A stretch of 64,000 nucleotides of DNA from an uncultured bacterium (GCA_947085505.1 CAMTWI010000003.1:7319-71318), one strand, 5' to 3'; shown: positions 17,669 to 58,515, counted from the first letter of the stretch. Notes: generated by a model not told the origin, from the letters alone. Program-made: numbers and translations.

Positions 17669-17682
17669 ACGTAGGGTATGTA

Positions 17683-19640: not shown

Positions 19641-19740
19641 AAAAGAATCGTAGCATGCAAAATGAAACGGGCCGGACTCTCTAAAGGAGAATCCAGCCCG
19701 TGAACTATCGGTTCATGAACGCGAGCCGAGACGTGATGAC

Positions 19741-20088: not shown

Positions 20089-20170
20089 TCCCAGGACGCG
20101 CGTACCTAGTTAATCCAGATACTCTTTCGCGTCTCCTCCCTGGTTATACGCCCGCTGTACTAAAATGCAA

Positions 20171-35258: not shown

Positions 35259-35361
35259 ATAAAAAGAGTAGCATGGAGGTTCGCACAATATTCATGAGCG
35301 TCTAGGCCGCCCCACTAGGAAACACTTGCGTTTTTAATCAAGGTGTGGTAAGGTACAAGTA

Positions 35362-38337: not shown

Positions 38338-38339
38338 CT

Positions 38340-39014
38340 ATGAATACTTTTTCTGTTAAGGAGGCGCTTACCCACGGGTGGAATACCTTTAAGTCCCGAC
38401 CATGGATATTCGTACAGGCAGGAATTCTTTTATTCCTTATCAACGTCGCCGTAAATCTCGTGCAAACCCTAGTTGAGGAGGCCGCCAAGTTGAATGGAGA
38501 CATGGCAGCACTCATGCTTGGGCTTGTGTCTATGGCACTTGGTATTGGTGTGTCCTTTCTCATTAGCATGGGAGAGACCGCCTTCTTCCTACGCGCGCAT
38601 GACAAGCCGGAAGACGTATCCCTTAGGGACCTCTGGCATCCACATCCATTCTGGAAGTTCCTCGGCACAAGTCTGCTTGCAGGCCTCATGATCCTTGGAG
38701 GCCTTATCCTGCTTATTGTTCCCGGCATCATCGTTGGCCTCATGCTTGCGTTCGTCGGCTACATTGTCATTGAGGAAAACCTCGGCCCAATTGATGCAAT
38801 CAAGCGCAGTGTGGCGCTCACCAAGGGAAACCGCTGGAAGCTCTTTCAGCTTTCACTCTCGCTCGTTGTTCTAAACATTCTCGGGTTGCTTGCGCTTCTC
38901 GTTGGTCTCTTCGTTACCATTCCTATCTCCTTCATCGCTATGGTATATGCATACCAAGCCCTGAAAGGGCGGGTGATTGAAGACGTAGTTACGGTCGAGT
39001 CAGTAGTAGCGTAA
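38340..39014 (+). CDS. polytopic membrane protein of unknown function (co-operonic with DksA-like gene)
   Basis: 4-6 predicted TM helices. Its start overlaps the upstream stop. A bidirectional terminator follows. Confidence 0.45.
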   Translation: MNTFSVKEALTHGWNTFKSRPWIFVQAGILLFLINVAVNLVQTLVEEAAKLNGDMAALMLGLVSMALGIGVSFLISMGETAFFLRAHDKPEDVSLRDLWHPHPFWKFLGTSLLAGLMILGGLILLIVPGIIVGLMLAFVGYIVIEENLGPIDAIKRSVALTKGNRWKLFQLSLSLVVLNILGLLALLVGLFVTIPISFIAMVYAYQALKGRVIEDVVTVESVVA

Positions 39015-42272: not shown

Positions 42273-43055
42273 ATGCTCGCCAAGAAATCCCTCGGACAGA
42301 ACTTCCTCATGCATCGGCAGACAGCCGAACGTATCGTTGGTGCCGCACTCCTTCCGGAGGCAGCAAAGGTACTAGAAATTGGTCCCGGGACTGGGATGCT
42401 GACACGCGAGCTACTCAATGCCGGCATGCGTGTTATTGCCATTGAGGCCGACTATTCACTCATCCCAGAGCTCGAATCGACATTCGCGAACGAAGTAGAG
42501 GAGGGAACACTCACGCTTGAGAGCGCGGACATACGAAATTTTGATACCACCACCATCAAAGGTGCATACCATTTGGTTGCGAACATTCCGTACTACATAA
42601 CCGGCGAGATCATCCGGCAGTTCCTCACCGCTCCGAATCAGCCCGCATCTATGACGCTTCTCGTTCAAAAAGAGGTGGCGGTCCGTATCGCCCGCGAGAA
42701 GAAAGAAAGCCTTTTATCGCTGTCCGTAAAGGTATATGGACAGCCAAACTATTGCTTTACTGTGCCTCGTGGCGCCTTCAAGCCAGCGCCGAACGTTGAT
42801 TCGGCCGTCCTGCGCATTGGAAATATTAGTCGCACTGGATTTGCTGATGCTGCCGGGGAAGAGCGGTTCTTCGAGGTTATCCGCGCCGGATTCGCACACA
42901 AGCGAAAGCGTCTTGCGAAGAATCTCGAAGAGAAGTTCTCAAAGGAGATGGTTACGCACGCATTTAGTGTCGCCGCACTCGACGCAAATGTGCGCGCAGA
43001 AGACATCTCGCTTGAGACCTGGAAAGTGCTTACGAGAGAGCTGAAGTCTTCATAA
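42273..43055 (+). CDS. rsmA: 16S rRNA (adenine1518/1519-N6)-dimethyltransferase
   Basis: N-terminus SLGQNFLMH, SAM motif LEIGPGTGMLT, and conserved NIPY. Length 260 aa. Confidence 0.85.
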   Translation: MLAKKSLGQNFLMHRQTAERIVGAALLPEAAKVLEIGPGTGMLTRELLNAGMRVIAIEADYSLIPELESTFANEVEEGTLTLESADIRNFDTTTIKGAYHLVANIPYYITGEIIRQFLTAPNQPASMTLLVQKEVAVRIAREKKESLLSLSVKVYGQPNYCFTVPRGAFKPAPNVDSAVLRIGNISRTGFADAAGEERFFEVIRAGFAHKRKRLAKNLEEKFSKEMVTHAFSVAALDANVRAEDISLETWKVLTRELKSS

Positions 43056-43138: not shown

Positions 43139-44143
43139 ATGGCTCATTCTACCCGTACACTCCGCATCGCTGCCGCTTCGTTACTAGCCGTTCTCATGGT
43201 GGGAGGTACCTATCTCTCGACCGGACCAAACCCCTTCTTCGGCCTAACACGCATCGTTGGTGCGCAGTCTTCTGAAGAACTCCTGCGCGAATATGCTGCA
43301 AAGGATAGCGACAGTGACGGGCTACCTGATTGGCAGGAAGCGCTGTACGGGACTGATCCCTTTAACCCCGAGTCGTTTAGGGTAGGTATTCTTGATGGGG
43401 AAGCGGTTGCACAGGGACTTATTGAGCCGAGAGTTACCGTGCGCGCCGAAAAAGAACCCACCGACCCAAACTCTATCCCCGGCACTGCAGGTGCTCCATC
43501 CTCTCTCACCGACCGTTTCGCTCAAACACTCCTCAAACAGTATCTTTTGAATCGTACCGGCACCCCTCCGAGCCAGGAGGAGATTGTTGCATTTGTGCAG
43601 AAAGGGGTTGCGGAGCTTTCTGCAAGTGCTGTCGAGAGAGACCGTTACACGCTTAGTGATGTTCGTGTTTCGGGAGACTCGGGAAGCGCAGCTCTTATTG
43701 CATACGCAGCGGAGGCGGAGGCGGCTATTGCAGCAAACACCGTTTCGAGCTCCATAAGTGCGCGCAACGAGCTTTCCTACTTCCAGGATGCAATACGAGG
43801 AGACGATGCTGCGCTAGCGAAGGTTTCTGCCTACAGCAAGGCCTACGCGGCAATGGGTGACGCCCTTATTCGCCTCCCGGTGCCACAAGAAGTACGTCAG
43901 TCGCATCTCACCATCGTTAACGCAACCATGCACCTAAGTAGCATGACCGCTGATATGGCAACACTTAAAGAAGATCCACTTCGAGCACTCATGGGCATCG
44001 GTCTGTATGGGAAACATGCAACGAGTATGAAGTCTGGATTTGCGAACCTAAACGGCGTGTTTAGGGCGAGACAGGTTTCCTTAACTAAAGGACAGCCTGG
44101 ATACGAGATCTTTAACACAAGCGAGTTAGCTGCTGCCCAGTAA
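43139..44143 (+). CDS. membrane-anchored protein of unknown function, first gene of T4SS-like operon
   Basis: N-terminal TM. DSDSDGLPDW is a Ca-binding-like DxDxDG motif. The rest is mostly alpha-helical. Confidence 0.4.
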   Translation: MAHSTRTLRIAAASLLAVLMVGGTYLSTGPNPFFGLTRIVGAQSSEELLREYAAKDSDSDGLPDWQEALYGTDPFNPESFRVGILDGEAVAQGLIEPRVTVRAEKEPTDPNSIPGTAGAPSSLTDRFAQTLLKQYLLNRTGTPPSQEEIVAFVQKGVAELSASAVERDRYTLSDVRVSGDSGSAALIAYAAEAEAAIAANTVSSSISARNELSYFQDAIRGDDAALAKVSAYSKAYAAMGDALIRLPVPQEVRQSHLTIVNATMHLSSMTADMATLKEDPLRALMGIGLYGKHATSMKSGFANLNGVFRARQVSLTKGQPGYEIFNTSELAAAQ

Positions 44144-44144
44144 C

Positions 44145-45599
44145 ATGACAACCTTCCGAAATAAAGCTCCCCTGGCAACCCTGCTTCTCGGAAGCCTGCT
44201 TCTGGTTTCGTGTGTCGTCGCAGCTCCGCAGACGGCACGCGCCGCTGACTACGATAGTCCTCTCCAGGTATTTAACTCGCTCGTAACGTCGCTTAGTACC
44301 GCAGCAGATAGAACGCTCAACTACATACTAAACGGACTTGCATGGGATTTGGCAAACCTTGCCATTGAATCCATGACCAAGAGTACGGTTAACTGGATTA
44401 ATTCTGGATTCCAGGGGTCTCCAGCATTCGTTACGGATCTCAGACAGAATATGCGTGGTGTTGCTGACACGATTGCGGGCCGCTTCTTTGACGAACTTAG
44501 TGAGACAAATTTTGGAAGGTCTCCATTCCAGGATCGCGTACTTGACGCAGTCCGTCTTGGGTATTATCTGCGCACAAGTCCAGAATCGTTTTATGTCCGC
44601 TATCCATATACGTTAAACCAGGTTAGTGCAGACGACCGTGCCTTCCTTCGTGGGGATTTCAGCCAGGGAGGTTTCAATGCATGGTTTGCAACCGTGATGT
44701 ACCCAGAGAACAATCCGTACGGAATGAACATCCTTCTGAACGAACAGCTTGAAAACAGGATTGGAAGCGGTCTTTCCATCCGTAGCCAGGAACTCGACTG
44801 GAGCAGGGGCTTTCTGTCGTGGAGGGGGGACTGCATTGCCACCGCACCGAATTCTGGAGCAAACAACACCCCAGTTAATCTCACGAATGAAGAACCGTGT
44901 ATAGATTACGAAGTCCTCACGCCAGGATCTGTCATACAAGAGGGACTTAACAAAGCACTCGGCGCTGGCCAAGATCGTCTTGTTGTTGCAGATGACTTCA
45001 ATGAGATCATCAGCGCGCTTTTGAATCAGCTTGTGGGCCAGGTGCTCGGAGGGAACAGTTCGGGCGGACTTCGAGGAGTATCTCGTCCAGCAACCGGAGG
45101 AGGATCCTCGTTCCTTGATCGATCCACTGATCCAACACTCAACCCTGGAAACAGCGCGAACACTGGTACCGCGTTCGCTGCAACCATTGCAGAACAGCGT
45201 TCGATTCTTGAGAGACACCAGGCTAGCTGGGAGAGGATTAGGGGTGCAGCACAAGCGGCACTCTCACGCTGCGGACCTGGTGGAGAACCGAACCCGGAGG
45301 TCGTTGTCACCCGTGCACAAGACGCACTTGTTAAGGCAGCGAACGGCATCGCAGCGTACCGCGATCTTGAGGAGCGCATCGCTGCCACTATAGCTGCTGG
45401 TGGGAACCAGACCGCTGCCATAACGCAGATTGTGAACGACTTCACAGCGCTTGGTCGCTCTGCAATGGTTCCAACAAGCGAAGAGATAGCGGAGGCGCAG
45501 ATTCAGGCGCAGGATACAGGGGACATTCGACCGGGATCGCTCTATAGCCAGATGAGTCGCCAGGCTGCAGGCAGTTGCCTTGCCGGCTCGTCTGAATAA
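44145..45599 (+). CDS. secreted protein of unknown function (signal peptide) in T4SS-like operon
   Basis: Signal peptide ...SCVVAAPQTARA. 484 aa. No recognisable catalytic motif. Confidence 0.4.
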   Translation: MTTFRNKAPLATLLLGSLLLVSCVVAAPQTARAADYDSPLQVFNSLVTSLSTAADRTLNYILNGLAWDLANLAIESMTKSTVNWINSGFQGSPAFVTDLRQNMRGVADTIAGRFFDELSETNFGRSPFQDRVLDAVRLGYYLRTSPESFYVRYPYTLNQVSADDRAFLRGDFSQGGFNAWFATVMYPENNPYGMNILLNEQLENRIGSGLSIRSQELDWSRGFLSWRGDCIATAPNSGANNTPVNLTNEEPCIDYEVLTPGSVIQEGLNKALGAGQDRLVVADDFNEIISALLNQLVGQVLGGNSSGGLRGVSRPATGGGSSFLDRSTDPTLNPGNSANTGTAFAATIAEQRSILERHQASWERIRGAAQAALSRCGPGGEPNPEVVVTRAQDALVKAANGIAAYRDLEERIAATIAAGGNQTAAITQIVNDFTALGRSAMVPTSEEIAEAQIQAQDTGDIRPGSLYSQMSRQAAGSCLAGSSE

Positions 45600-45603
45600 T
45601 TAT

Positions 45604-48093
45604 ATGCGAAAGCTCTTCAGAGCATCGCTGTTGATCACCGTACTTTCGGTGTTGCTCTTTATTACTAGCTATTCACCTACCCAGGCCCAAACAACTCTTG
45701 AACAATGTGGCTCCGCAAGCCCACCGGCGGATTGTATTTCGTATGATCCAACAATTAATCCTGTCTTGGTTAGAGAGGGGGCGAGGTATTACCAAGACTG
45801 GGGAACAAGGAGCCCTTACCAAAGCGAAAACGATGGTCTCTGCAAAGTATATGTTTCGGGTCCTGTCTTTTTTGCAGGCTGTGTAAAAGATGGACGTTTT
45901 TCCATTCAAGCTGACTATGTTATAGGGGCCCCCACTGGGGGAGAGCCCGTAACGGGTGTGCAAGTTGATCAGTCTGGGGAAGTTACCTCGCAACCAATCG
46001 AAACCTGTGGGCCAATGAACATCGGTTGTTGGCTAATTAAACTACCCGGCATGCTCTTCACGGGCATTGCATTTGTTTTCTTGCTTCTCTCAGGAATGAT
46101 CCTCGGACTCGCGGGCACAGTGTTCAACTGGGTGGTCATACGTACGGTCTTCCAGTTCGGCACGTATTTCGGCACGAACGAAGGCATGCTTATTGCGTGG
46201 GGCGTGATGCGTGACATTGCAAACATAGGCCTCCTGTTTGGTTTCATATTTATGGGAGTGCTTCTTATACTCAACGTCGATAGTGGGGGACACGGGCACG
46301 GCGGGGGTGTGAGTGCGAAGAAAGCTATACCACGCCTCATCATCTTTGCGGTGCTTTTAAACTTTAGTCTCTTTGCTTCACAGGCGGTTATCGACGTCGC
46401 AAACGCATTTAGCTCAAGCTTTGCAACGCTTGCTGGAGAAAATTGTACTGGCAACACCTCGACAGGGAGCAGTGCCACTGACAGAGCCGCCGGCATGGAC
46501 AATGAGCAATGCTCTAATGTGGGCATATCTGGGCAGATACTAAAAGTGGCTGGTCTCACGTCAATTTGGGATTCAGAAAACAGAGATGTTCAAACTGCAA
46601 TGAAGAATCTTGTCGATCGGCCCTATAGCTATGCGGTGTCCTTGATGCTGCTTTCCATTTTTGTACTCATCACAGCCATGGTGTTACTTGCGGGTTCCAT
46701 CATGCTCATTATCCGTGTGGTTATTTTGTCGCTTCTTATGGTTACGTCGCCCATAGGCTTTGCCGGCATGGCCATACCGAAGCTGCAGGGCATTGCCAGT
46801 ATGTGGTGGAGCAAGCTGATGTCGCAGGCGTTCTTCGCTCCCGTATATCTTCTTCTTATATTTATCAGTATCAAATTAACTGAGGGCCTCATGGAGGGAG
46901 AGGCGACCCTCGCCAATGCACTCATTGCGAATCAAGGAAACTCGGTGGCAGGGAACATGCAGGTGGTTATGGTGTTCATGGTTGTTATCGGATTCATGAT
47001 TGGTTCCTTGCTCGTGGCATCAAAGATGGGGGCGATGGGGGCGAAGTTTGCGACATCGGCAGTCGCAGGAACAACCATTGGTTTTGCTGGTTTTGCCGGT
47101 CGAAGGACGCTCGGAGCAGCATCAGGGAATGTTGCTAAAAGAATTGCATCGTCGAACTACGCTCGTAGCAATGGGTTTGGAAGTAGGTTCGCCTATAACA
47201 TAGCCAACAAGGGTGCTACGGCGAGCTACAGCGCTCGTACTGGTATAAATAACATCACTAAGGGCGCTGGTCTCGACATTGGCAACGCAGGGAAGAATGT
47301 AAGCCATGGAATTCATGGTATTGAGGAGGCAGAGGTGAAAAAACGTAAGGACTTTGCTGAAAAAACCCTTGCGCAGACGCCTGCAGAACAGGCTGCGGAG
47401 AAGAGACTTAAGGATGAGAAGGATCGAATAAAGCTCTATAAAGAGGCGGCCAAGGAAGAGCTCGATCGTGGAAATGAGCCTGAAGAAAGTGCACTCAAGG
47501 CACAGAAGGAGAAGCACACTGAAGCGGCAGCAGCACGTCTAAAAGACCTTAACACCAAAAAGCAGGCTGTAGCAAAGCTTGAGGCTGACGGAGTTTGGGG
47601 TAATGAGCTCGATGAGCAAAAGAAGGCACTTGCTGCCCTAGAGGAGGAGCATGAACAAGCATCTGAGATTGAGGCAGCCGATATTGCGTCTCGTCAAAAG
47701 CGAATATCTGATCGTGGCGCTCGCTTCGATAAGATTCTAAAGGATTACGACAACCGATCGAAAGAAATCGACAGAACTATCAGTGGCTACGAGTCTATCG
47801 ATAGCAGTGGGGGCATTATGTGGAACAAGGGCCTTTCTAAAGAGTCAGCACAACGTGAGTATGGGGAAGCGCTTGGCAAAGACCATGGCATGCCTCTTAC
47901 ACTGGGACACCATATAAACCAAGAGGCTTCCGCAGACATCCTTAAGAAGCTTAAGCGCAGCAAGCGCGACAAGTTGGTTGATGCAATTAAGGAGAATGCC
48001 AAGGAGGACAAAGAGGAGGACGGCGGCGGCAAGAAGGAAGAGAAGTCCAGTGGAGGCGAAAAGAAAAGTGGAGGAGATGGGGGCCATCACTAG
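45604..48093 (+). CDS. VirB6/TrbL-like polytopic T4SS channel protein with Cys-rich N-terminal ectodomain and long K/E-rich C-terminal coiled-coil tail
   Basis: A signal peptide is followed by a Cys-containing domain of about 130 aa. Then 6 or more TM helices. Then about 330 aa of charged coiled coil, ending in a Gly/Lys-rich tail. Start trimmed to MRKLFRAS. Confidence 0.55.
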   Translation: MRKLFRASLLITVLSVLLFITSYSPTQAQTTLEQCGSASPPADCISYDPTINPVLVREGARYYQDWGTRSPYQSENDGLCKVYVSGPVFFAGCVKDGRFSIQADYVIGAPTGGEPVTGVQVDQSGEVTSQPIETCGPMNIGCWLIKLPGMLFTGIAFVFLLLSGMILGLAGTVFNWVVIRTVFQFGTYFGTNEGMLIAWGVMRDIANIGLLFGFIFMGVLLILNVDSGGHGHGGGVSAKKAIPRLIIFAVLLNFSLFASQAVIDVANAFSSSFATLAGENCTGNTSTGSSATDRAAGMDNEQCSNVGISGQILKVAGLTSIWDSENRDVQTAMKNLVDRPYSYAVSLMLLSIFVLITAMVLLAGSIMLIIRVVILSLLMVTSPIGFAGMAIPKLQGIASMWWSKLMSQAFFAPVYLLLIFISIKLTEGLMEGEATLANALIANQGNSVAGNMQVVMVFMVVIGFMIGSLLVASKMGAMGAKFATSAVAGTTIGFAGFAGRRTLGAASGNVAKRIASSNYARSNGFGSRFAYNIANKGATASYSARTGINNITKGAGLDIGNAGKNVSHGIHGIEEAEVKKRKDFAEKTLAQTPAEQAAEKRLKDEKDRIKLYKEAAKEELDRGNEPEESALKAQKEKHTEAAAARLKDLNTKKQAVAKLEADGVWGNELDEQKKALAALEEEHEQASEIEAADIASRQKRISDRGARFDKILKDYDNRSKEIDRTISGYESIDSSGGIMWNKGLSKESAQREYGEALGKDHGMPLTLGHHINQEASADILKKLKRSKRDKLVDAIKENAKEDKEEDGGGKKEEKSSGGEKKSGGDGGHH

Positions 48094-48105
48094 TACAATA
48101 CTGAA

Positions 48106-48909
48106 ATGAATCCCGAAGAAGATCTTGATGACGTTGAAATAAACCAGGCAGTGGGTGCTGCTATGCGTGACTTACCAAGGCCCGTACAGGACTTCCTAAA
48201 GAGCGATGAGCGCGATGCTGTTGCTCGTGAATTGTCTGCAAAATATCAACTCCATGTTGACCAAGCAGGGGAGTTCGAACGATCCTTCATTCTAATGCTC
48301 TTGGGCGTGATGCGTCCCGAGGAATTCGTTACAACCCTGACTCAAGCTGGGCTCTCGCAAGACATTGTTAACGGGCTGGCCGCGGATTTGAACACCCGCG
48401 TATTCATGAAGCTACGTGATGCTGAACGCGAGCAGGTGGCTGCCGTACCCCCAGCACCACAAAAGCCAGCTCCGATTCCGCCACCCGCCCTTGATTACCA
48501 ACCCGCAGCCACACCAACACTCCCTGGTTCCCCTGTACCCGCGCCGATGCCGCCTCCCATAGCTACCCAGGCGCCAGTAGTACTCGAGCCAACGCCTGCA
48601 CCAAGCCCCGTTCCGCAGCAGCACTTTGTACACGCAATGCCTGATGCGCACGCTCAAGCCGGGTGGCACCCAGCTGCGGCAGTACATATATTTGTACCGA
48701 CTCAACCAAACCACCATCCGCAGCCTGCACCTATGCAGACCGTCCCTAGCATCGAGCCCGCTCCTGAAGTAGAGCCCGTAGCTGCGCGAATCGAGACCCC
48801 GCCAGCTACAGTGCGTGAGCCGGAGATACTACCTTCACAGCCGACCCTACCATCTACACCACTTAAAAAGGAATTCAGTTCTGATCCGTATCGCGAACCT
48901 ATCCAGTAG
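48106..48909 (+). CDS. proline-rich protein of unknown function in T4SS-like operon
   Basis: An N-terminal globular domain of about 110 aa is followed by a PAP/PxP-rich tail. Confidence 0.35.
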   Translation: MNPEEDLDDVEINQAVGAAMRDLPRPVQDFLKSDERDAVARELSAKYQLHVDQAGEFERSFILMLLGVMRPEEFVTTLTQAGLSQDIVNGLAADLNTRVFMKLRDAEREQVAAVPPAPQKPAPIPPPALDYQPAATPTLPGSPVPAPMPPPIATQAPVVLEPTPAPSPVPQQHFVHAMPDAHAQAGWHPAAAVHIFVPTQPNHHPQPAPMQTVPSIEPAPEVEPVAARIETPPATVREPEILPSQPTLPSTPLKKEFSSDPYREPIQ

Positions 48910-48954
48910 AAAATAGTGCGAGTGCTCATTCAGTATCGGGTATACTGGATAGCA

Positions 48955-49362
48955 ATGGAGTATCAGGTACCACAGTTCATTGAGGTTGAGGACAAGATAT
49001 TCGGTCCGTTCACACTCAAGCAGTTTATTTATGTTGCAGGGGGCGTGGGTCTCTGCGCAATCGTACTCCTCTATCTTCCGCTCTGGCTCGGTATTATCAT
49101 CGCTCTTCCCGTTGGCGCACTCACCGCAGCGCTCGCATTCTATAAGATAAACAACAAGCCGTTTGTTGAAATCATGGAGGCAGCCTTCAACTATTACATC
49201 GGAGATCGTCTCTATCTTTGGAAGAAGGACAGGAACGCGGTAGTAGATGCACCAGTGGCAGTAAAGCCTGCAGACCCCGCAAAGCTTGGTCTAACACAGA
49301 GCAGACTCAAAGATCTTGCATGGTCGCTTGATATCAAGGACAACCAGAATAACGGCGCATAG
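48955..49362 (+). CDS. PrgI/VirB3-like small membrane protein
   Basis: About 135 aa. Two adjacent TM helices near the N-terminus (FIYVAGGVGLCAIVLLYLPLWLGIIIALPVGALTAALAF). It lies immediately upstream of VirB4, as PrgI does. Confidence 0.5.
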   Translation: MEYQVPQFIEVEDKIFGPFTLKQFIYVAGGVGLCAIVLLYLPLWLGIIIALPVGALTAALAFYKINNKPFVEIMEAAFNYYIGDRLYLWKKDRNAVVDAPVAVKPADPAKLGLTQSRLKDLAWSLDIKDNQNNGA

Positions 49363-49364
49363 AT

Positions 49365-49994
49365 ATGGCATCGACAAAGACAACACAATCGTTTGTGCCC
49401 GTGAAGGAAGTCCGTAACGGCGTGGTCGTACTTAAAAATGATGGGTACCGCGGCATTCTCATGTGCTCATCCATTAACTTCGCTCTTAAAGGGGAAGATG
49501 AGCAGCGTGCGATTATAGGCGGGTTCCAGAGCCTTTTGAATACTCTCGATTTTACGATTCAAATTGTTGTACATTCTCGGAAAACCGACATTCGGCCGTA
49601 CCTTGCCTTGCTTGAGACTCGTATGAAGGATCAAACAAGTGAACTCATGCGGCTACAGTTGCGCGAGTATATTGCGTTCATCAGGAACTTCATCGACTCG
49701 AGCGACATTATGACGAAGATGTTCTATGTGGTGGTGCCGTATTCGGCAGGTGGTGGTGGAGTTGGGAAAAGCACCCCCGCATTTCTTGGTGGAAGACCGG
49801 TACCCAAAGACAATGGCGGAGACGGGTTCGAAGAACACCGTGTGCAGCTCGAGCAGCGCATGTCACTTGTTGTGCAGGGACTCGCCTCAAGTGGTGTACG
49901 TGCGGTTCCGCTCGGGACTGAAGAGATAATTGAACTTCTGTACCGTTCGTTCAACCTTTCTGAGCTTGAGAATCCTATTCATCTTTCTGCATAA
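49365..49994 (+). CDS. VirB4/TrbE/PrgJ-type ATPase, N-terminal segment, terminated by in-frame TAA
   Basis: The sequence (FVPVKEVRNGVVVLKNDGYRGILMCSSINFALKGEDEQ...FTIQIVVHSRK) follows the VirB4 N-terminal pattern. It is in the same frame as the downstream ORF and is separated from it by TAA+TCT only. Confidence 0.6.
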   Translation: MASTKTTQSFVPVKEVRNGVVVLKNDGYRGILMCSSINFALKGEDEQRAIIGGFQSLLNTLDFTIQIVVHSRKTDIRPYLALLETRMKDQTSELMRLQLREYIAFIRNFIDSSDIMTKMFYVVVPYSAGGGGVGKSTPAFLGGRPVPKDNGGDGFEEHRVQLEQRMSLVVQGLASSGVRAVPLGTEEIIELLYRSFNLSELENPIHLSA

Positions 49995-49997
49995 TCT

Positions 49998-51821
49998 ATG
50001 GCACTCCTCGACTTCCTTGGAAAGAATAAGAAAGAAGACGCGCCCGCGATAACGCCGGTGCTGCCAAAGGACATTTATGCAGAAGGGGAGCTAAAGCTTG
50101 CGGATGCTATTGCGCCTGCGGCTCTTAAAGTGGGGGCCCGAGAGCTTGAACTCGGCGAGAAGGTGTCTCGCTCGTTCTATACCATTTCGTATCCACGATT
50201 CTTGGTTGATAGCTGGTTCACGCCAATTATCAATCTCGATAAGGTATTCGATGTATCGATCTTCATTCATCCGGTAGAGACGGGGTCTGCACTCCGCGGA
50301 TTCCAGAAAAAAGTGGCCGAAATTGAGAGTCAGATTTCTGATAGGGAAGAGAAGGGGTTGGTGCGTGACCCAATGCTCGATACCGCGTACCGCGACCTCG
50401 AGCAGCTCCGCGACCAGTTGCAGCAGGCTGAGGAACACATCTTTGAGGTAGGTCTTTACATCACCCTCTACGGAAACTCGAAAGAGGACCTCGACAAGAT
50501 TGAGGGTGATGTGCGCGGCATCCTCGACGCAAAGCTTGTCTACACAAAGCCTGCCTTGTTCCAGCAGGAACAAGGATTCCGTTCTACGTTGCCACTTGCT
50601 ACCGACGAACTCATGGTTACGAGCAAGCTCAACTCGTCACCGCTTTCTTCAATATTCCCATTCGTCTCCTTCGACCTTACGAGCGATCGCGGCATTCTCT
50701 ACGGCATCAATCGCCATAACGCGTCCTTGATCCTCTTTGATCGCTTCTCGCTTGAGAACTACAACTCGGTGGTGTTTGCAAAGTCTGGTTCCGGAAAGTC
50801 CTACGCAGTGAAGCTCGAAATTCTTCGCTCTCTCATGTTTGGGTCGGATGTTATTGTCATCGACCCTGAGCGCGAATACGAGAACCTCGCGTCTGCAACT
50901 GGGGGACGCACCTTTAACATCTCGCTCTCCTCTGAACATCACATCAATCCGTTTGATCTTCCGCCCGTTAAAGAGGACGAGGAGCCGTCCGACATTCTTC
51001 GTTCAAACATCATTAACCTTGTTGGTCTCTTCCGCATCATGCTTGGGGGACTAACCCCTGAGGAGGATGCGATTGTTGATCGCGCTATTACAGAGACCTA
51101 TGCCCTTAAAGACATTACGGGTGATGCGGACTTCACGGGTGTAGAGCCACCACTTCTTTCAGACTTTGAGAACGTCCTTTCAGGGATGGAGGGCTCGGAA
51201 TCCCTTGTTATACGCCTTTCCAAGTACACGCACGGCACCTGGGCGGGATTCATAAATCAACCAACCAACATCGATATCAACAAGCAGTTCATTGTGTTCT
51301 CGGTGCGCGATATGGAGGACGAGTTGAAGCCGGTAGCGATGTACATCATTACGCACTTCATCTGGAACGCGGTGCGACACGAGCTCAAGAAGCGCCTTCT
51401 CGTCATCGACGAGGCCTGGTGGATGATGAAGTCGGAAGATACAGCGTCTTTCCTCTACAGCGTCGCGAAGCGCGGACGTAAGTACTATCTCGGTGTCGCG
51501 ACCATAACCCAGGATGTGGAGGACTTCTTGAAGAGCCCGTATGGTCGACCAATCCTCACAAACTCCTCAATGCAACTTTTGTTGAAGCAGTCTCCAACAA
51601 CAATCAATGTGCTTAAAGAGACTTTCAACCTAACCGATGAGGAGAAGTTCTTGCTCCTTGAGTCAGGTGTGGGGGAGGGACTCTTCTTTGCAGGACTTAA
51701 GCACGTCGCGATTAAGATCGTTGCTTCCTATACTGAAGACCAAATCATAACCTCAGACCCGTCGCAGCTTCTCCAGATCAGGCAGGAAAAGGCAAGGAAC
51801 GACGCAGGGCTCGTAGCCTAG
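49998..51821 (+). CDS. VirB4/TrbE/PrgJ-type T4SS ATPase, ATPase segment
   Basis: Walker A FAKSGSGKSY and Walker B LVIDEAWWMM. Conserved ATITQ near the C-terminus. Confidence 0.85.
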   Translation: MALLDFLGKNKKEDAPAITPVLPKDIYAEGELKLADAIAPAALKVGARELELGEKVSRSFYTISYPRFLVDSWFTPIINLDKVFDVSIFIHPVETGSALRGFQKKVAEIESQISDREEKGLVRDPMLDTAYRDLEQLRDQLQQAEEHIFEVGLYITLYGNSKEDLDKIEGDVRGILDAKLVYTKPALFQQEQGFRSTLPLATDELMVTSKLNSSPLSSIFPFVSFDLTSDRGILYGINRHNASLILFDRFSLENYNSVVFAKSGSGKSYAVKLEILRSLMFGSDVIVIDPEREYENLASATGGRTFNISLSSEHHINPFDLPPVKEDEEPSDILRSNIINLVGLFRIMLGGLTPEEDAIVDRAITETYALKDITGDADFTGVEPPLLSDFENVLSGMEGSESLVIRLSKYTHGTWAGFINQPTNIDINKQFIVFSVRDMEDELKPVAMYIITHFIWNAVRHELKKRLLVIDEAWWMMKSEDTASFLYSVAKRGRKYYLGVATITQDVEDFLKSPYGRPILTNSSMQLLLKQSPTTINVLKETFNLTDEEKFLLLESGVGEGLFFAGLKHVAIKIVASYTEDQIITSDPSQLLQIRQEKARNDAGLVA

Positions 51822-51824
51822 CGT

Positions 51825-52328
51825 ATGGAAAAGAAGCATAAGATAGGAAATGTAACGGCCGGCATGATGATCGTGACGGCACTTATTGTTGATGCGGTCC
51901 AGGCATTGCTTACGTTCTCTGTTTTCCTTCTTCCTCTCTCTGTTCTTATAACGTTTATGGCAGCGACGATGTTCTTTCTCTGGTTTGCACTGTCCGGTGT
52001 GAAGTATGTGGGGAGTGGTGGAGGAAAGAAGCTTCTTATCGCACTTGCCTCAACAGTTGCTGAGCTCGTGCCGGTAGTTAATGTCATCCCCGCAACGACA
52101 GCAGGTGTTATTGGTATCATCGTTCAGACTCGTATTGAGGATGCTCGGGCACAAGCAGGAGGGAAAGTCACACCGCGCACAGCTATGGCTTCGGCGAGAC
52201 TACAAAAAATGAATCAGGCACGGGCTGCACGGGAAGACAGCGCCCGTGAAGGAAGAGAAGGAGCCCAACAGGCACGACACACCCCCGCAAATGACACTTC
52301 TGCCCACAATACTAGCGAAGCCGCATAA
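51825..52328 (+). CDS. small polytopic membrane protein (possible VirB2/TrbC-like or accessory)
   Basis: Three hydrophobic helices, then a charged tail. Confidence 0.35.
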   Translation: MEKKHKIGNVTAGMMIVTALIVDAVQALLTFSVFLLPLSVLITFMAATMFFLWFALSGVKYVGSGGGKKLLIALASTVAELVPVVNVIPATTAGVIGIIVQTRIEDARAQAGGKVTPRTAMASARLQKMNQARAAREDSAREGREGAQQARHTPANDTSAHNTSEAA

Positions 52329-52375
52329 GATACCCCCGCGTAGGCACGCGCTCCCACACCGCTTCGGTATATACT

Positions 52376-53368
52376 ATGTATATGATACGCGTTGTGCTTC
52401 TCGCTTTTGTCTTCGCCGGCTCCTTTCTTGGCGTCTCGCATGCTCAAGGTATTCCAAACAGCACCGAGCCGCTTACGCTATCGGTATCTCCTGAATATCC
52501 TCGTCCTTACCAAACCGTTACTGTCTCCCCCCGAAGTAGTCTTCTTGACCTCTCGGCGAGTACGGTACGGATATCGGTTAATGGAACTACTGTCTATGAA
52601 GGAAGTGGCACCCAGGCTACAAGTGTGCGAGCAGGGGGCCTTGGAGAGCGCACAACCATAACGGTGTCGGTTACGGATCCTTCTGGCCGTGTCTATACCA
52701 AACAGCAAGTCTTGCGACCGGCAGAGGTGTCCTTGGTGCTTGAACCGGCATCAACCATGCACCCGTTCTACCAGGGAGGGGGACTCGTTGCATCAGAGGG
52801 GCGTGTGCGTCTTGTGGCGCTTGCTGATCTGCGCAGTGCACCAGGAACTCGTCTCCCAAGCTCAAGCCTCGTCTATACCTGGCGACTTGGAAGCCGTGTA
52901 CTAACGGACATGTCGGGTATAGGAAAGTCCACGCTCCTCGCAACCGCACCGGTTCGATACCGCAATGCCGATATCTCTGTTACGGTTACGAGCCCGGACA
53001 ACACACTCGTTGGCGAGGCACGCACACTTGTATCAGCGGTCGATCCTGTGGCGCGTATATATAGGAACGACCCGCTCCTTGGCCCTAACTTTGATGTCGC
53101 TCTCACCGATCGCTTCTCGATGCCTGACACTGAGACAACCTTCCGCGCTGTTGGATACTTCTTTGCCGTGCCACCAACATTTTCGTGGACGGTTAACAAA
53201 GCAACCAATGGAACTGACAAAGACATAACTGTGCGCGCAACTGGAAACGGGCAGGGTACCGCACGGATCGGCCTTACAGCGACCGAAGTCGCTGCCAGAC
53301 GCAGTGCGGATACTGCGGTTACTGTAGACTTCGGACGATCTACTGGCTTTGGCTTCTTTGGCCTATAA
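52376..53368 (+). CDS. secreted beta-rich protein of unknown function (signal peptide ...SHA|Q)
   Basis: Signal peptide MYMIRVVLLAFVFAGSFLGVSHAQ. Ser/Thr/Val-rich. Confidence 0.4.
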   Translation: MYMIRVVLLAFVFAGSFLGVSHAQGIPNSTEPLTLSVSPEYPRPYQTVTVSPRSSLLDLSASTVRISVNGTTVYEGSGTQATSVRAGGLGERTTITVSVTDPSGRVYTKQQVLRPAEVSLVLEPASTMHPFYQGGGLVASEGRVRLVALADLRSAPGTRLPSSSLVYTWRLGSRVLTDMSGIGKSTLLATAPVRYRNADISVTVTSPDNTLVGEARTLVSAVDPVARIYRNDPLLGPNFDVALTDRFSMPDTETTFRAVGYFFAVPPTFSWTVNKATNGTDKDITVRATGNGQGTARIGLTATEVAARRSADTAVTVDFGRSTGFGFFGL

Positions 53369-53372
53369 CCCT

Positions 53373-54383
53373 ATGAAATATCTCACTTTTCTCATACTTT
53401 TCCTCGGCCTTCCACTGCTCGCGTTTGCGCAGACGACAACCGGAGCCGTAAACACGGACACCAGTTTTGTTCCACTCACGAACATTCCGTTCCTTACCGA
53501 AACAGGAAACTCCTTCAGTCTTGATTCGTTTTTAAACGGGCTTTATCGCATAAGTATCGGTATCGCTGCTGTTGTTGCGGTCCTTCAGATCATGCGCGCG
53601 GGCATTATGTATATGGGCAGCGATAGTGGATTCGCTGAGAAAAAAGAGGCGAAGAATCTTATAGCACTCTCGATAGGCGGCCTTATTCTTGTGCTTTCAC
53701 CGGTGGTTGTGTTCTCCGTTATTAATCCTGAGATTCTTAATCTTAAGATAGGGAATATCGAGAAACTTAAACCCATTGAGTCTGCTGAACCTCGTAGAGT
53801 AATTGAGGTTGCGTCGGCAAGTGACTGTAGAGAGCAAGGAGGCGTAGTTGAGTCACAGGGACCACCAGTAACCTGTTCTGTACCAGCGGATTCTGATGCG
53901 GGCCGAGAAGCGACTTCCTGTGCCACCTTTAACAATCCTCCTGAGTCTCCAATTATTGTGGGCGGGAATTGTGCACTCGAGCTTAGTGAAAGTTACGTAA
54001 GAATTGATAATGCCTGTTGCGCCGGTATTCAGCAGGGAAATATTTGCTGTGGAAAAAGCGAAAGCTCAGGTGAGCAAGCGCCACGCGTCTTCCTTGATCA
54101 GCCGCTCATCTACTACAGCTATCAAGAGTACGACCGTGTAGAAAATAAAGGTAGGTTTGTTGGTGTGGTTCCGAACCATGCCGCGAGGGTTACTAGTTTT
54201 AGAAATGCTTGCACTGCAGCGGGCAGAGAAGTAGAGACAGATCGTGACGATAACTGGGCTGAGCGTTTTATCCTGGCTCGATGGGGAAGCTGTCCAGGGG
54301 ACACAGGTGTTCCTGCTAGTACAGGAAACACGAACACAGAGTATCAGTGTGAAGATAGAAGAGCTGTCTGTAAGACGAATTAA
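53373..54383 (+). CDS. VirB2/TrbC pilin-like N-terminal module fused to Cys-rich C-terminal domain
   Basis: A signal peptide is followed by two closely spaced hydrophobic helices (LYRISIGIAAVVAVLQIMRAGIMYM / LIALSIGGLILVLSPVVVF), as in T4SS pilins. The last ~200 aa contain about 17 Cys, including CC pairs. Confidence 0.4.
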   Translation: MKYLTFLILFLGLPLLAFAQTTTGAVNTDTSFVPLTNIPFLTETGNSFSLDSFLNGLYRISIGIAAVVAVLQIMRAGIMYMGSDSGFAEKKEAKNLIALSIGGLILVLSPVVVFSVINPEILNLKIGNIEKLKPIESAEPRRVIEVASASDCREQGGVVESQGPPVTCSVPADSDAGREATSCATFNNPPESPIIVGGNCALELSESYVRIDNACCAGIQQGNICCGKSESSGEQAPRVFLDQPLIYYSYQEYDRVENKGRFVGVVPNHAARVTSFRNACTAAGREVETDRDDNWAERFILARWGSCPGDTGVPASTGNTNTEYQCEDRRAVCKTN

Positions 54384-55603
54384 TGCAGCCTATGAACCGC
54401 CGCATCCTCATCATTGTCGCCAGCATCGTAGTTGTACTCGGCCTGCTTGTTGGTGCGTACTTCCTCTTCTTTAACAACCCGACTCTCTCGGTTGGAGTAC
54501 CAAGTAACCCCTTCGGTTCGAGTGGGAATCGCACAGAAACCGAACTTCTCAGTCCAGACGGGCAACCCACTCGAGGGGCTGGGACAGTTGTGGCACCCCG
54601 TCTTATACGTATTAGCGACGCACCTGTCGCCAAGGGCGCTGTAGCACTTTATATCCCGCCAGTACCTGCAGCGACTTCTACAGAGCCTGGTATACCTGCT
54701 GATACTGAGATTCGCTTCATAGAGCGCCAGAGCGGGAACATCTACGCATTCAGGGTCCATGATCGTGTGCTTACCCGTATTTCAAACCGCACACTTCCGG
54801 GTATACAGGAAGCAGCTTGGACCACAGACGGCGGTCGTGCATTCGTTCGCTACCTAACACGATCAACTGATGGTACAGAGCGTGTTGATACCTACATGCT
54901 CCCAGCTGATGGTGGAGAAGGGTACTTCCTTGAGCAGGATCTCGAGCAGGTTGCTGTACGAGCCACAAGCACGGTGTTCTCACTCCTTCCGAGCACGTCT
55001 GGATCCATTGGGTCTTTGTCTTCTCCAGACGGAACAAACGTACGAACACTCTTTACGTCAGCGCTTTCACGACTACGTGCAGGATTCTCTGGTGCAAACA
55101 TTGTTGCAACCACCAAAGCCTCGAGCGGGCTTGATGGATATTCGTTCCTTGTGGACGGCGGGTCATTCACGCGCATCCTGGGGCCCCTCAGGGGACTTGC
55201 AACCCTTCCAAACCAAGAAGGGACATCAGTCCTCTACAGCCATGTAGATGCCAATCGCACCTACCTGCAAGTACTTGACCTCGCAACAAGAAACGCAACG
55301 GCACTTCCGCTCGTTACGCTCGTAGAGAAATGCGTGTGGGAACCAGGAGGCAGGGCAGTGTATTGCGGTGTACCAACCGCACTCGCAGGCAACGTTCCAG
55401 ACGAATGGTATCAAGGCGCTAAAACATTCTCTGACCGCATCTGGCGCATCGATTTAGATACCCGTCTCGCAACACTTGTCGTTGACCCAGGACAAGTGGC
55501 AAATGTGGCCATTGACGCGATTGCGCTCACAATTGATTCGAAGGGTGATGTCCTTGTCTTTACAAACAAGAAAGACGGCACGCTCTGGGTATACGACCTT
55601 TAA
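54383..55603 (+). CDS. N-terminally anchored extracytoplasmic protein of unknown function, last gene of T4SS-like operon
   Basis: Single N-terminal TM. The ectodomain is beta-rich. Its start overlaps the upstream stop (TAATG). Confidence 0.4.
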   Translation: MQPMNRRILIIVASIVVVLGLLVGAYFLFFNNPTLSVGVPSNPFGSSGNRTETELLSPDGQPTRGAGTVVAPRLIRISDAPVAKGAVALYIPPVPAATSTEPGIPADTEIRFIERQSGNIYAFRVHDRVLTRISNRTLPGIQEAAWTTDGGRAFVRYLTRSTDGTERVDTYMLPADGGEGYFLEQDLEQVAVRATSTVFSLLPSTSGSIGSLSSPDGTNVRTLFTSALSRLRAGFSGANIVATTKASSGLDGYSFLVDGGSFTRILGPLRGLATLPNQEGTSVLYSHVDANRTYLQVLDLATRNATALPLVTLVEKCVWEPGGRAVYCGVPTALAGNVPDEWYQGAKTFSDRIWRIDLDTRLATLVVDPGQVANVAIDAIALTIDSKGDVLVFTNKKDGTLWVYDL

Positions 55604-55610
55604 GAAATAG

Positions 55611-55641
55611 CAAAAGGGCCCGTATATACGGGCCCTTTTGC
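55611..55641. terminator. bidirectional hairpin terminator between T4SS-like operon and yidC
   Basis: AAAAGGGCCCGTATATACGGGCCCTTTTG. Confidence 0.7.
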
Positions 55642-56378
55642 TATTTAACTGCGACGAGCTCTATCTTCTTTCGGCGGATAATAAATTCCTGAAGAACACC
55701 TACCAGGTTGCTCGTTATAAAGTAGAGAGCGATGGCAACCGAGGTGTAGTACGCAGCAACACCTATGAACACCGGGAGCATAAATCGCATCTGGAGCGCG
55801 AGCGAGCGTCCAAAGTCTGCCTGCATGTCCGTTCCTGGTTTCTTTGTACTCTTCTCAGGAACAGGTATTGCATACCAACCGTATGCGAACTGAGTGACTG
55901 CAGCGATAAGTGCAAGAATAATGCTCGCTCCCGTAACCGCAAAAACCCCCAAGAAGAGTGGCGCGATAGCGAGTGGAGCCGGAACGAATGAATAAAGAAT
56001 AGAAGCATCAACCGTAAGGAGGGTCTTGTTGTTGAACACCCAGTAGAGCGCAATAACAATCGGGAGCTGGATGATGAGTGTGAGAAGCCCTGCGAATGGA
56101 TTCACCCCATACTTCTTGTAAAGTGCGAACATTTCTTTCGCCTGGTTCTCTTTATCATCCTTGAGCTTCTCACGAATCTCTTTCATCTCTGGCTCAATGG
56201 CCTTGATTGCTCGCTGGGTGCGGAGTGCCGCGAACGAGAGCGGCATAAGGATGACTTTAACGATCAAGGTTGCCACAACCACCGCCAAACCAATATCCTG
56301 CCCAGGCAGGATATCTGTAAGGAACATGAGGAGGTTATAAATCGGCGCGTAGAGAACAGTATGGAAGAAGGACATCAT
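55641..56378 (-). CDS. yidC: membrane protein insertase YidC (short, Gram-positive/CPR-type)
   Basis: Five TM helices, with conserved YidC/Oxa1 core motifs. It sits in rpmH-rnpA-yidC synteny. Confidence 0.85.
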   Translation of the reverse strand: MMSFFHTVLYAPIYNLLMFLTDILPGQDIGLAVVVATLIVKVILMPLSFAALRTQRAIKAIEPEMKEIREKLKDDKENQAKEMFALYKKYGVNPFAGLLTLIIQLPIVIALYWVFNNKTLLTVDASILYSFVPAPLAIAPLFLGVFAVTGASIILALIAAVTQFAYGWYAIPVPEKSTKKPGTDMQADFGRSLALQMRFMLPVFIGVAAYYTSVAIALYFITSNLVGVLQEFIIRRKKIELVAVK

Positions 56379-56942: not shown

Positions 56943-56951
56943 TTATCCACA
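56943..56951 (+). promoter_or_regulatory. consensus DnaA box TTATCCACA, 2 nt upstream of dnaA ATG
   Basis: Exact 9-mer match. Confidence 0.6.
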
Positions 56952-56953: not shown

Positions 56954-58303
56954 ATGAATAGACTTGATGCGCGGGAACTCTGGGAATACACCCTCACGCA
57001 GGTGGAGCTCTCCATTTCTCCCGCTAACTTCAACACCTGGTTCCGCGACAGCTCGATAGTAAAGATTGAAGAGGGGATTGTATACATTGGCGTTCCGAGC
57101 CAGTTCTTCCGTGATTGGTACTTAAAGAAGTTCAATATGCTTCTTCTGAAAATCATTCGCGGGGTCTCTCACGAGTACCGAAATATCGAGTACATGATCG
57201 TAAAAGACGATCGCCGACGTCCCAAGGAACCTCGCCATAAGCCACAGCAAACGGTTGAGATGCCGCTCGACGAGTTCTATATAAACAAGAGCGACGGCCT
57301 AAATCCTCGGTATACCTTCGATACGTTCGTCGTTGGTTCCTTCAACGAACTCGCGCACACTGCCGCTCAGGCCGCTCTGAAGCGCCCAGGAATCATGTAT
57401 AACCCTCTGTTTATCTACGGAGACACCGGAAGAGGGAAGACACACTTGATCCAGGCTATCGGGAACCAGTTCAAGAAGCTCTATCCAGGGCGAAAAGTGT
57501 ACTACTTAACAGCAGAAACCTTCGGCCAGGACTATACAAACTCTATCCAAGCTGGAAATACCAACCGTTTCAAAGAAAAGTACCGCCAGTACGATCTGTT
57601 GATCATGGACGACATCCAGTTCTTCTCGAAGAAGGATAAAACACAGGAAGAACTGTTCCATCTCTTCAACGCCCTCTACGACAACAACAAACAGATCCTA
57701 TTCTCCTCTGATAGGGCACCAGCAGCGATCCCTGATATCGCAGACAGGCTCCGCGGCCGCTTTGCTGCCGGTATGTCAATTGATATTGGAGAACCAGACA
57801 CTGAAAGCCGCATGGCTATCGTCCGAAAAAAAGCGGCATCACACGGCGTCTATCTCTCGGACGAGGTTATCGAGCACATTGCGACCTCTATCTCAGGTTC
57901 AATTCGCGAGCTAGAAGGGGTCATCAACAGCGTGGTCTGTCATACCCAAGTGAAAGGTGTTCCACCAGACCTCGCAGAAGTTCGTCATTCGCTCCGCTCC
58001 TTTGCACGTCCGCAGAAAACAGTCTCTGTGAAGCATGTGGTGTCTAAGGTTGCTGAGTTCTACGGCATTGATGAGGAGAGTATCTATGAGAAGACTCGTA
58101 GAAGGGAAGTAGTGCGTCCTCGACAAGTAATCATGTATCTACTCAGAGAGGACTTCAACGCCTCGTACCCAACCATAGGGTCAAAGCTTGGTGGCAGGGA
58201 CCACACAACCGTCATTCATTCATGCGAGAAGGTAAAGCGAGAAATAATAGTTGACCCAGACCTTGCAAAAGAGATCCAAGATATTAGAAGTCTGTTGGTA
58301 TAG
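56954..58303 (+). CDS. dnaA: chromosomal replication initiator DnaA
   Basis: Walker A GDTGRGKTHL, the AAA+ sensor motifs, and the C-terminal DNA-binding domain. Length 449 aa. Confidence 0.95.
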   Translation: MNRLDARELWEYTLTQVELSISPANFNTWFRDSSIVKIEEGIVYIGVPSQFFRDWYLKKFNMLLLKIIRGVSHEYRNIEYMIVKDDRRRPKEPRHKPQQTVEMPLDEFYINKSDGLNPRYTFDTFVVGSFNELAHTAAQAALKRPGIMYNPLFIYGDTGRGKTHLIQAIGNQFKKLYPGRKVYYLTAETFGQDYTNSIQAGNTNRFKEKYRQYDLLIMDDIQFFSKKDKTQEELFHLFNALYDNNKQILFSSDRAPAAIPDIADRLRGRFAAGMSIDIGEPDTESRMAIVRKKAASHGVYLSDEVIEHIATSISGSIRELEGVINSVVCHTQVKGVPPDLAEVRHSLRSFARPQKTVSVKHVVSKVAEFYGIDEESIYEKTRRREVVRPRQVIMYLLREDFNASYPTIGSKLGGRDHTTVIHSCEKVKREIIVDPDLAKEIQDIRSLLV

Positions 58304-58515
58304 TTGGGGAAAACCTATGGATAACCTTCGAAGAAACACGGGGACATGTAGGGGAAAGAAGGGTTTCCGAGAGGACAACAATTTGTTATCCCCAGAACAT
58401 CTCGTCCAGACGAGGCCGCCCTCAACAGGTTGTTTCCGAGTGAAGCGTCTTAATAGAGCCAGTCTATTGAACGGAAGGGGTTGTCCCCCGTGTCCACACC
58501 CCTAATAATAGGACT
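58304..58515. other. candidate oriC / DnaA-box cluster in dnaA-dnaN spacer
   Basis: One-mismatch DnaA boxes: TTATCCATA on the minus strand at about 58313-58321 and TTATCCCCA at about 58385-58393. A 2-mismatch box lies at about 58489-58497. An AT-rich stretch runs into the dnaN start. Confidence 0.45.

Follow-up and report, generated by a model that had tools for sequence, protein, structure and literature searches.

The subject of this analysis is a cluster of eleven genes in the genome of an uncultured bacterium (GCA_947085505.1, contig CAMTWI010000003.1:7319-71318), from which one stretch of 64,000 nucleotides, referred to here as the window, was analyzed. The genes, called g1 to g11, are tightly packed open reading frames (ORFs) on the plus strand that occupy positions 43139-55603, or about 12.5 kb (Table 1). 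We conclude that they almost certainly encode the Patescibacteria type IV secretion system (T4SS), and we consider it very probable that, taken as a whole, the observations are best explained by such a T4SS with a host-contact mechanism and not by a conjugation system. An initial annotation, made by a model from the sequence alone, had proposed a minimal, monoderm-type chromosomal T4SS that was not an obvious conjugation system, and this proposal stands, no relaxase or coupling protein having been found in the window. Its further suggestion that the cluster was the best candidate for an undescribed system has to be given up, since publications already describe the T4SS of Patescibacteria (PMC10633639; PMC12102498; reviewed in PMC12857230).

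The identification begins with the ATPase. The product of g7 matches the NCBIfam model conju_CD1110 with an E value of 5.5e-110 (368.8 bits, cutoff 325) and the Pfam family P-loop_TraG with 1.5e-24, and the Walker A (KSGSGKS, residues 262-268) and Walker B (LLVIDE, residues 467-472) motifs that the initial annotation had noted can be read in its sequence. It is 74-100% identical to its Patescibacteria homologues, at most 36% identical to any VirB4 in 72,556 plasmids and 25% identical to residues 228-772 of PrgJ of pCF10, so that, judged by similarity, the window VirB4 groups with that of Patescibacteria. Matches to NCBIfam CedB (1.1e-8) and CedD (5.9e-4) are weak and partial, cover the P-loop region only and fall far under the cutoffs. 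More than 8000 VirB4 homologues were found, and the best 120 of them are 86-100% identical and, where the source is named, are proteins from metagenome-assembled genomes of Patescibacteria, Paceibacterota or Parcubacteria; this identity indicates that the source organism is an ultra-small bacterium of the Paceibacteria (Candidate Phyla Radiation/Patescibacteria). For the comparison of loci, a scan with one genome per species gave 554 relatives, from which we kept the best 80 loci by VirB4 similarity (L004-L083).

The N-terminal part of VirB4 is encoded separately by g6, a 209-residue ORF at 49365 that the initial annotation had left out of its recognizable parts. It matches the NCBIfam models VirB4_plasma (1.9e-8, model positions 101-233), conju_CD1110 (4.7e-5, positions 2-104) and TrsD (0.0023), its precomputed Pfam family is PF26593 (TraC-like), and in 82 of 83 loci it immediately precedes virB4. 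The two proteins match complementary parts of the CD1110 model, and because g6 corresponds to the N-terminal part and g7 to the remainder of the VirB4 models, we conclude that VirB4 has been split into two genes. Upstream of this pair, the PrgI/VirB3-like protein that had been proposed is found in g5, an ORF open from a GTG at 48916, whose product matches Pfam PrgI (PF12666) at 7.5e-10 with 39.7 bits, over the cutoff of 27, and which was found in 77 of the 83 loci.

Two other parts of the apparatus are recognized through their orthologues. The VirB6/TrbL-like assignment of g3 is unsupported on the window protein alone, for which direct Pfam and NCBIfam scans and a PDB sequence search were all empty, and it holds through the orthologues, 8 of 44 of which match TrbL/VirB6 PF04610 (best 1.9e-7) and one of 44 of which matches TrbL_4. 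The g3 ORF can be read from a TTG at 45580, and its product combines a signal peptide with a Cys-containing outer domain, six or more transmembrane (TM) segments and a Lys/Glu-rich tail of about 320 residues, which makes it an "extended VirB6" in the sense of PMC12857230. In the same way the VirB2/TrbC pilin-like N-terminus of g10, which covers approximately residues 1-130 of a longer ORF opening at 53349, fails on the window protein, where the matches to T4SS_pilin (E value 0.009) and to the Mbov_0395 pilin-like model (0.0025) are below cutoff, and succeeds in the family, in which 48 of 54 members match T4SS_pilin PF18895 (best 3e-11) and 21 of 54 match TrbC/VirB2 PF04956. No second pilin gene was found in the 64-kb window. 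The Cys-rich domain that follows the pilin domain (window 53763-54383) contains 12 cysteines and not the approximately 17 first counted. In orthologues this extension measures from 6 to 266 residues and has from 0 to 16 cysteines, an even number in 45 of 47 cases, which fits a variable disulfide-bonded outer domain and makes the extension a candidate host-specificity module.

As had been noted from the sequence, no relaxase, VirD4/TcpA, VirB11 or VirB8/9/10 was detected among the 42 ORFs submitted to Pfam or NCBIfam, which comprise most ORFs of about 190 residues or more in the 64-kb window. A wall-hydrolase domain of the PrgK/TrsG/CD419 type was likewise absent from g1-g11. An M23/LysM peptidase encoded 3 kb upstream on the other strand was considered as the VirB1 of the cluster and rejected because it is not syntenic, only partial matches to it being found, in 3 of 83 loci. 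When eight cluster families were compared with the profiles of pCF10 PrgC/D/E/F/G/H/I/K/L/M/PcfA, the only match was a weak one between g3 and PrgH (hhalign probability 11%), the best that g3 obtained among the pCF10 proteins, and no cluster protein showed similarity to PrgL or PrgD by profile.

The gene starts used here are the public gene calls of an identical public contig, and those of g3 (45604), g5 (48955), g10 (53373) and g11 (54392) lie slightly 3' of the longest-ORF starts. With these starts the intergenic gaps are 1-47 nt, in good agreement with the eleven to twelve genes and gaps of 0-50 nt described earlier. The cluster was also described as lying between ksgA and a strong bidirectional terminator, and both borders are found: ksgA ends at 43055, and the spacer region between g11 and yidC holds a hairpin with a fold energy of -31.4 kcal/mol (z = -8.6), a value that none of 200 shuffled sequences equaled. 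Its right arm (55628-55645) overlaps the final codons of yidC, which ends at 55641, and it is probably a bidirectional terminator of g11 and yidC. A generic promoter and terminator scan gave nothing above the shuffled expectation and did not list this hairpin, and an Rfam scan of the window returned four tRNAs only, none of them at the cluster borders. The G+C content stays even through the cluster and into its flanks, and no paralogues of cluster genes were found elsewhere in the window.

Beyond yidC follow rnpA, dnaA and dnaN. The earlier placement of the cluster about 1 kb from the replication origin rests on the proximity of dnaA and of DnaA boxes; the GC skew of the window does not pinpoint the origin, and because of this the position next to the origin is inferred from dnaA. 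The only perfect DnaA box (56943-56951) immediately precedes dnaA, and two boxes with one mismatch each lie in the dnaA-dnaN spacer (58316-58394); the cumulative GC skew reaches its minimum at approximately 23-40 kb in the window and not at dnaA.

Whether the cluster is conserved next to ksgA and yidC or is an island had been left by the initial annotation to a comparison of synteny, and we find it at the same site in 80 related species. The order PrgI-TrsD-VirB4-(g8)-g9-pilin-g11-yidC-rnpA-dnaA-dnaN is kept in nearly all of these 80 species-level loci, and ksgA-g1-g2-g3(-g4) lies upstream in most of them. In the 54 loci with complete dnaA and dnaN, the identity of VirB4 is correlated with that of DnaA (Spearman 0.79) and of DnaN (0.72), and because it tracks DnaA identity we take the cluster to be vertically inherited. 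The median identities in these loci are 76% for VirB4 (49998-51821), 55% for DnaA (56954-58303) and 38% for DnaN (58516-59616), with VirB4 above DnaA in 53 of the 54. A conservation of VirB4 above that of DnaA is unusual for a secretion ATPase. Taken together, synteny, co-divergence, flat G+C content and the low identities of VirB4 to plasmid VirB4 and PrgJ show a vertically inherited core system and not an island.

Comparison of the loci also suggests that the cluster is built of two modules. In one Paceibacteria clade, of which L014, L020, L024 and L035 were checked, the 9 kb upstream of PrgI (positions 1-9000 of these loci) are colinear with the window from 14271 to 3636, in reversed orientation. 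This fits an inversion of about 45 kb, one of whose breakpoints would lie near 3.6 kb and the other in the gap between g4 and g5 (48910-48954). Because a breakpoint falls in this gap, g1-g4 and g5-g11 are regarded as separable modules, and they are probably separate transcription units. A sub-clade of twelve loci (L046, L048, L050, L054, L055, L057-L059, L064, L065, L072 and L073) has the order g9-g11-pilin in place of g9-pilin-g11, and in these loci VirB4 abuts g9 with no g8 between them. Many loci (L005, L007, L012, L013 and others) are titled "uncultured Candidatus Saccharibacteria"; these titles look like default labels, and because such loci have the gene layout of Paceibacteria and a VirB4 identity of 74-89% we treat the titles as unreliable for taxonomy.

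Scanned directly against Pfam, NCBIfam and PHROG, the products of g1, g2, g3, g4, g8, g9 and g11 gave no match or sub-threshold matches only. The DxDxDG calcium-binding-like motif pointed out earlier in g1 (DSDSDGLPDWQE, residues 56-67) proves to be a bacterial TSP3-type calcium-binding repeat: TSP3_bac matches the window protein at 3.7e-4 and 18 members of a mixed alignment (A9), which includes all 24 g1-family sequences, with a best value of 2.8e-10. Within the family D56, D58, D60, D64, W65 and E67 are invariant or nearly so, and the family profile matches the calcium-binding region of Bap at 2.5e-4. The g1 protein has one TM-like segment (residues 8-26) and no cysteine, and its gene lies upstream of VirB6 in most related loci. 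The g2 family comprises over 5000 clusters; the C-terminal part of the g2 protein is a confidently modeled three-helix bundle, and its PDB sequence profile found only tropomyosin-like coiled coils, at E > 0.2.

The model of g9 calculated by AlphaFold (pLDDT, or predicted local distance difference test, of 86.7) consists of a signal helix and three beta domains, and a Foldseek search of the PDB with it returned the first three immunoglobulin (Ig) domains of NCAM (Ig1-3), SGBP-B, phage Hoc and GhpA at 1e-7 to 1e-8, matches that include adhesion molecules, a surface glycan-binding protein and a grappling-hook protein; the PDB sequence profile also matched Hoc (2.7e-4). The model is Ig-like and not of the NTF2-like VirB8 fold. 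The gene is present in 82 of 83 loci, and the C-terminus of its product (window 53303-53368) carries an FG-x(5-7)-[IFL]FGL tail that is conserved in closer relatives. The confidence of the model is low in this tail, which may serve in docking or sorting. The g11 protein has a TM-like segment at residues 8-26 and invariant cysteines at positions 317 and 328; its family profile matches 12 TolB structures (E values of 5e-4 to 8e-3), three of 60 orthologues match PD40 weakly and one matches DPPIV_N weakly, and from these matches it is probably a beta-propeller. An extracellular location of the products of g1, g2, g9, g10 and g11 is supported by their signal or anchor segments, even Cys counts and Ig-like folds. 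No family was found for g4 or g8 or for their orthologues; g4 was detected by tblastn in 28 of the 83 loci, and g8 is kept by position and not by sequence, an ORF with at least two TM segments occupying its slot in 43 of 76 loci and the slot being too small (gap <100 nt) in approximately 28 of the 76, in 11 of which there is a 4-nt overlap between the adjoining genes.

A homologous cluster is required for epibiotic growth in the Saccharibacterium Southlakia epibionticum (Wang 2023, Cell, PMC10633639). For the cluster described here a role in host contact is our favored interpretation and somewhat better than an even proposition; that it serves uptake rather than export is possible, at less than even chances, and conjugation is very unlikely. 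In the mechanism that we propose, VirB4, acting with TrsD and held at the membrane by VirB3 and VirB6, would extract the pilin from the membrane, and the extracted pilin would form a surface filament or a short conduit. The variable disulfide-rich outer domain of the pilin and the products of g1, g2, g9 and g11 would span the wall and contact the host cell, and the machine, with no coupling protein involved, would serve to attach to the host and to exchange host material or take it up, supporting host-dependent growth. A stronger proposal, which we offer as speculative and think doubtful, is that g1, g2, g9, g11 and the pilin Cys domain form an undescribed outer host-contacting assembly that replaces VirB5, VirB8 and adhesins in Paceibacteria and allows a T4SS independent of a coupling protein to acquire material from the host cell.

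Several points weigh against this interpretation. A coupling protein could lie elsewhere in the genome, and VirD4 homologues are located far from virB4 in most genomes (PMC12102498). Neither a VirB8-like scaffold nor a VirB1-like hydrolase was found in the cluster with Pfam, NCBIfam or the pCF10 profile comparison, a pilin bearing an extra domain of 214 residues may polymerize unlike VirB2, and the fold assignments of g2 and g11 are weak. The loci were picked by VirB4 similarity, which may inflate the apparent conservation of VirB4, although the gap to DnaA is large. Finally, the requirement for epibiotic growth is known only for Southlakia epibionticum and not for Paceibacteria (PMC10633639).

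Other functions have to be weighed against host contact. One is effector export, in which the T4SS, in the manner of the T4SSs of pathogens, would inject proteins into the host bacterium or release them there and so manipulate or harm it. Export of proteins without a nearby coupling protein is known from Bordetella Ptl and Brucella VirB (cited in PMC12102498), and Wang et al. suggested that the Saccharibacteria system "may instead export proteins" (PMC10633639). The several secreted proteins of no assigned role encoded in the cluster would suit this function, but they have Sec-type signals or anchors and are positionally conserved like structural parts, not variable like effectors, and the window encodes neither a coupling protein nor a recognizable effector with a T4SS signal; we consider export unlikely. 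The initial annotation had offered a DNA-uptake or host/epibiont-contact apparatus, and of these alternatives host contact remains plausible and DNA uptake is weakened. Import of host DNA, for nucleotides or for genes, would resemble Helicobacter ComB or archaeal Ced, which also have no relaxase or coupling protein, and the VirB4 matches to CedB and CedD point in this direction, as does the proposal that DNA or other macromolecules are imported (PMC12102498). Those matches are confined to the P-loop region, however, and the window also encodes the standard route of uptake, made up of ComEC, RecJ and type IV pilus genes that include PilB and PilC. In S. epibionticum transformation requires ComEC and growth does not, whereas the T4SS is essential (PMC10633639; PMC12857230). 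The presence of ComEC and type IV pili, together with the ability of the tested relative to do without ComEC, makes DNA import the less likely function, and we rate it as improbable.

The cluster could also be a degenerate or cryptic integrated conjugative element (ICE) with its relaxase and coupling protein encoded beyond the window. Its VirB4 does belong to the CD1110 family of Gram-positive conjugative elements, and a tyrosine recombinase gene lies 8 kb upstream (34350-35288), but this recombinase has an XerC/D-type architecture and is probably a housekeeping gene, and further housekeeping genes stand between it and the cluster. An ICE would moreover have to be reconciled with the same ksgA-yidC position in dozens of species, with the co-divergence with DnaA, with a VirB4 more constrained than DnaA, with the lack of a G+C shift and of a border tRNA, and with a best plasmid VirB4 of 36% identity. 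This makes an ICE exceedingly improbable. We rejected an ICE or genomic island because of the synteny, the co-divergence and the base composition, without a search for border repeats. The Patescibacteria T4SS with a host-contact mechanism is the explanation that we retain.

The remainder of the window contains housekeeping genes, ComEC and RecJ, the type IV pilus set, a LexA-like/Y-family polymerase pair and the XerC/D-like recombinase. The competence and pilus region extends over 6467-21925 on the minus strand, and two large minus-strand ORFs are found within these limits (13807-15270 and 15851-17329), one without a family match and the other with a sub-cutoff match to CarboxypepD_reg only. 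The LexA-like and Y-family polymerase genes adjoin (1070-2972) and form an SOS-type pair in a very small genome. No Pfam family was found for an ORF of 559 residues on the plus strand (36274-37953) or for one of 188 residues on the minus strand (38177-38743).

Table 1. Coordinates and assignments of the T4SS cluster genes, their borders and other features of the window
Feature	Position	Strand	Description	Basis or remark
g1	43139..44143	+	N-terminal membrane anchor, TSP3-type calcium-binding motif, helical C-terminal part	
g2	44145..45599	+	Secreted, mainly alpha-helical protein of a very large unnamed family	
g3	45604..48093	+	Extended VirB6/TrbL-like polytopic membrane protein	Orthologue matches, TM layout
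g4	48106..48909	+	No TM segment, N-terminal domain of about 110 aa, proline-rich tail	
g5	48955..49362	+	PrgI/VirB3-like small membrane protein	Pfam PF12666
g6	49365..49994	+	TrsD/TraC-like, separate-gene equivalent of the VirB4 N-terminal domain	NCBIfam, PF26593
g7	49998..51821	+	VirB4 ATPase core (CD1110/MPF-FATA type)	NCBIfam, Pfam
g8	51825..52328	+	Small protein, 3-4 TM-like segments, charged tail	
g9	52376..53368	+	Secreted, three tandem Ig-like beta-sandwich domains	AlphaFold, Foldseek
g10	53373..54383	+	VirB2/TrbC-like pilin domain and 214-aa domain with 12 Cys	Orthologue matches
g11	54392..55603	+	Membrane-anchored, probable TolB/PD40-like beta-propeller	Family profile
ksgA	42273-43055			3' end 83 nt before g1, the first cluster gene
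Hairpin	55606-55645		Perfect 18-bp hairpin	Within the 37-nt g11/yidC spacer region
yidC	55641-56378			Convergent to g11
Y-family polymerase	1070-2458	-		
LexA-like	2367-2972	-	S24 peptidase	
ComEC	6467-7948	-		
RecJ	8848-10584	-		
Prepilin-like ORF	15236-15847	-	Weak N-methylation motif	
PilC-like	18429-19640	-	T2SSF	
PilB-like	20171-21925	-	T2SSE	
Tyrosine recombinase	34350-35288	-	XerC/D-type domain order	8 kb upstream of the cluster

Patescibacteria account for a large share of bacterial diversity and most of them appear to live on other cells, and their T4SS is the only one reported to be essential for the bacterium that carries it. In Paceibacteria a fixed set of extracellular proteins with recognizable fold types accompanies the machine, and this set, together with the fast-changing outer domain of the pilin, provides candidates for the components that make contact with the host and determine the host range.

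Compared with known systems, the cluster shares with the MPF-FATA T4SSs of monoderms (Prg/Pcf of pCF10, Trs of pGO1/pSK41 and CD1110 of Clostridioides CTn2) the CD1110-type VirB4, PrgI, the order of PrgI followed by VirB4 and, with pGO1, a TrsD-like protein. It differs from them in having no PcfC-like coupling protein, relaxase, PrgK-like hydrolase or LPXTG adhesin, in having no PrgL/PrgD-like VirB8 folds detectable by profile, in the 25% identity of its VirB4 to PrgJ, and in the presence of a VirB2-like pilin, which the MPF-FATA systems are without (PMC12857230). The T4SS of Mollicutes ICEs (pilin-like Mbov_0395, VirB4 Mbov_0397) is likewise a wall-less or monoderm system with a pilin-like protein. 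The NCBIfam models of these two proteins rank second among the VirB4 matches (8.1e-74) and first among those of g6 (1.9e-8), and the pilin-like model matches g10 weakly (0.0025), all of these scores being under the curated cutoffs; the Mollicutes system is carried on mobile ICEs with DNA-processing genes, whereas the window cluster is fixed in the chromosome. With Helicobacter ComB and archaeal Ced the cluster shares a minimal composition without relaxase or coupling protein, but the similarity to CedB and CedD is at the level of the P-loop only and the window holds a separate ComEC and type IV pilus route.

The closest correspondence is to the Patescibacteria T4SS itself. The S. epibionticum cluster (SEML1_0006-0019) resembles Gram-positive conjugative T4SSs but has pilins and is without coupling and relaxase proteins (PMC10633639). 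A survey of 3035 genomes recovered a monophyletic Patescibacteria VirB4 clade within MPF-FATA (Quinonero-Coronel 2025, Microb Genom, PMC12102498) in which TrsD, PrgI/VirB3, VirB6 and VirB2-like proteins are the common parts, relaxases are nearly absent and KsgA, RnpA, RpmH, DnaA and DnaN are the typical neighbors in Paceibacteria; import from the host was proposed there, and a 2025 review repeats this account (PMC12857230). The window cluster shares with the Patescibacteria T4SS its VirB4, TrsD, PrgI/VirB3, VirB6 and VirB2-like pilin, the lack of a nearby relaxase or coupling protein, the chromosomal location and the KsgA/RnpA/RpmH/DnaA/DnaN site. The marks of the Patescibacteria clade, namely TrsD, PrgI, VirB6, a pilin, no close relaxase and the dnaA/ksgA site, are thus all found here, and because the cluster fits the published system point by point we regard it as already known in kind. 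It departs from S. epibionticum in having a single pilin gene, to which a Cys-rich domain of variable length is fused, in place of an array of six small pilins, and in having neither the peptidase nor the lysozyme that is encoded just downstream of virB4 in that organism. The genes g1, g2, g9 and g11 have no Pfam or NCBIfam matches above threshold, and PMC12102498 draws genes of this sort as unannotated neighbors. What is added here to the published descriptions is the fold-level annotation of these genes, the constraint on VirB4, the variable extension of the pilin and the layout in two modules.

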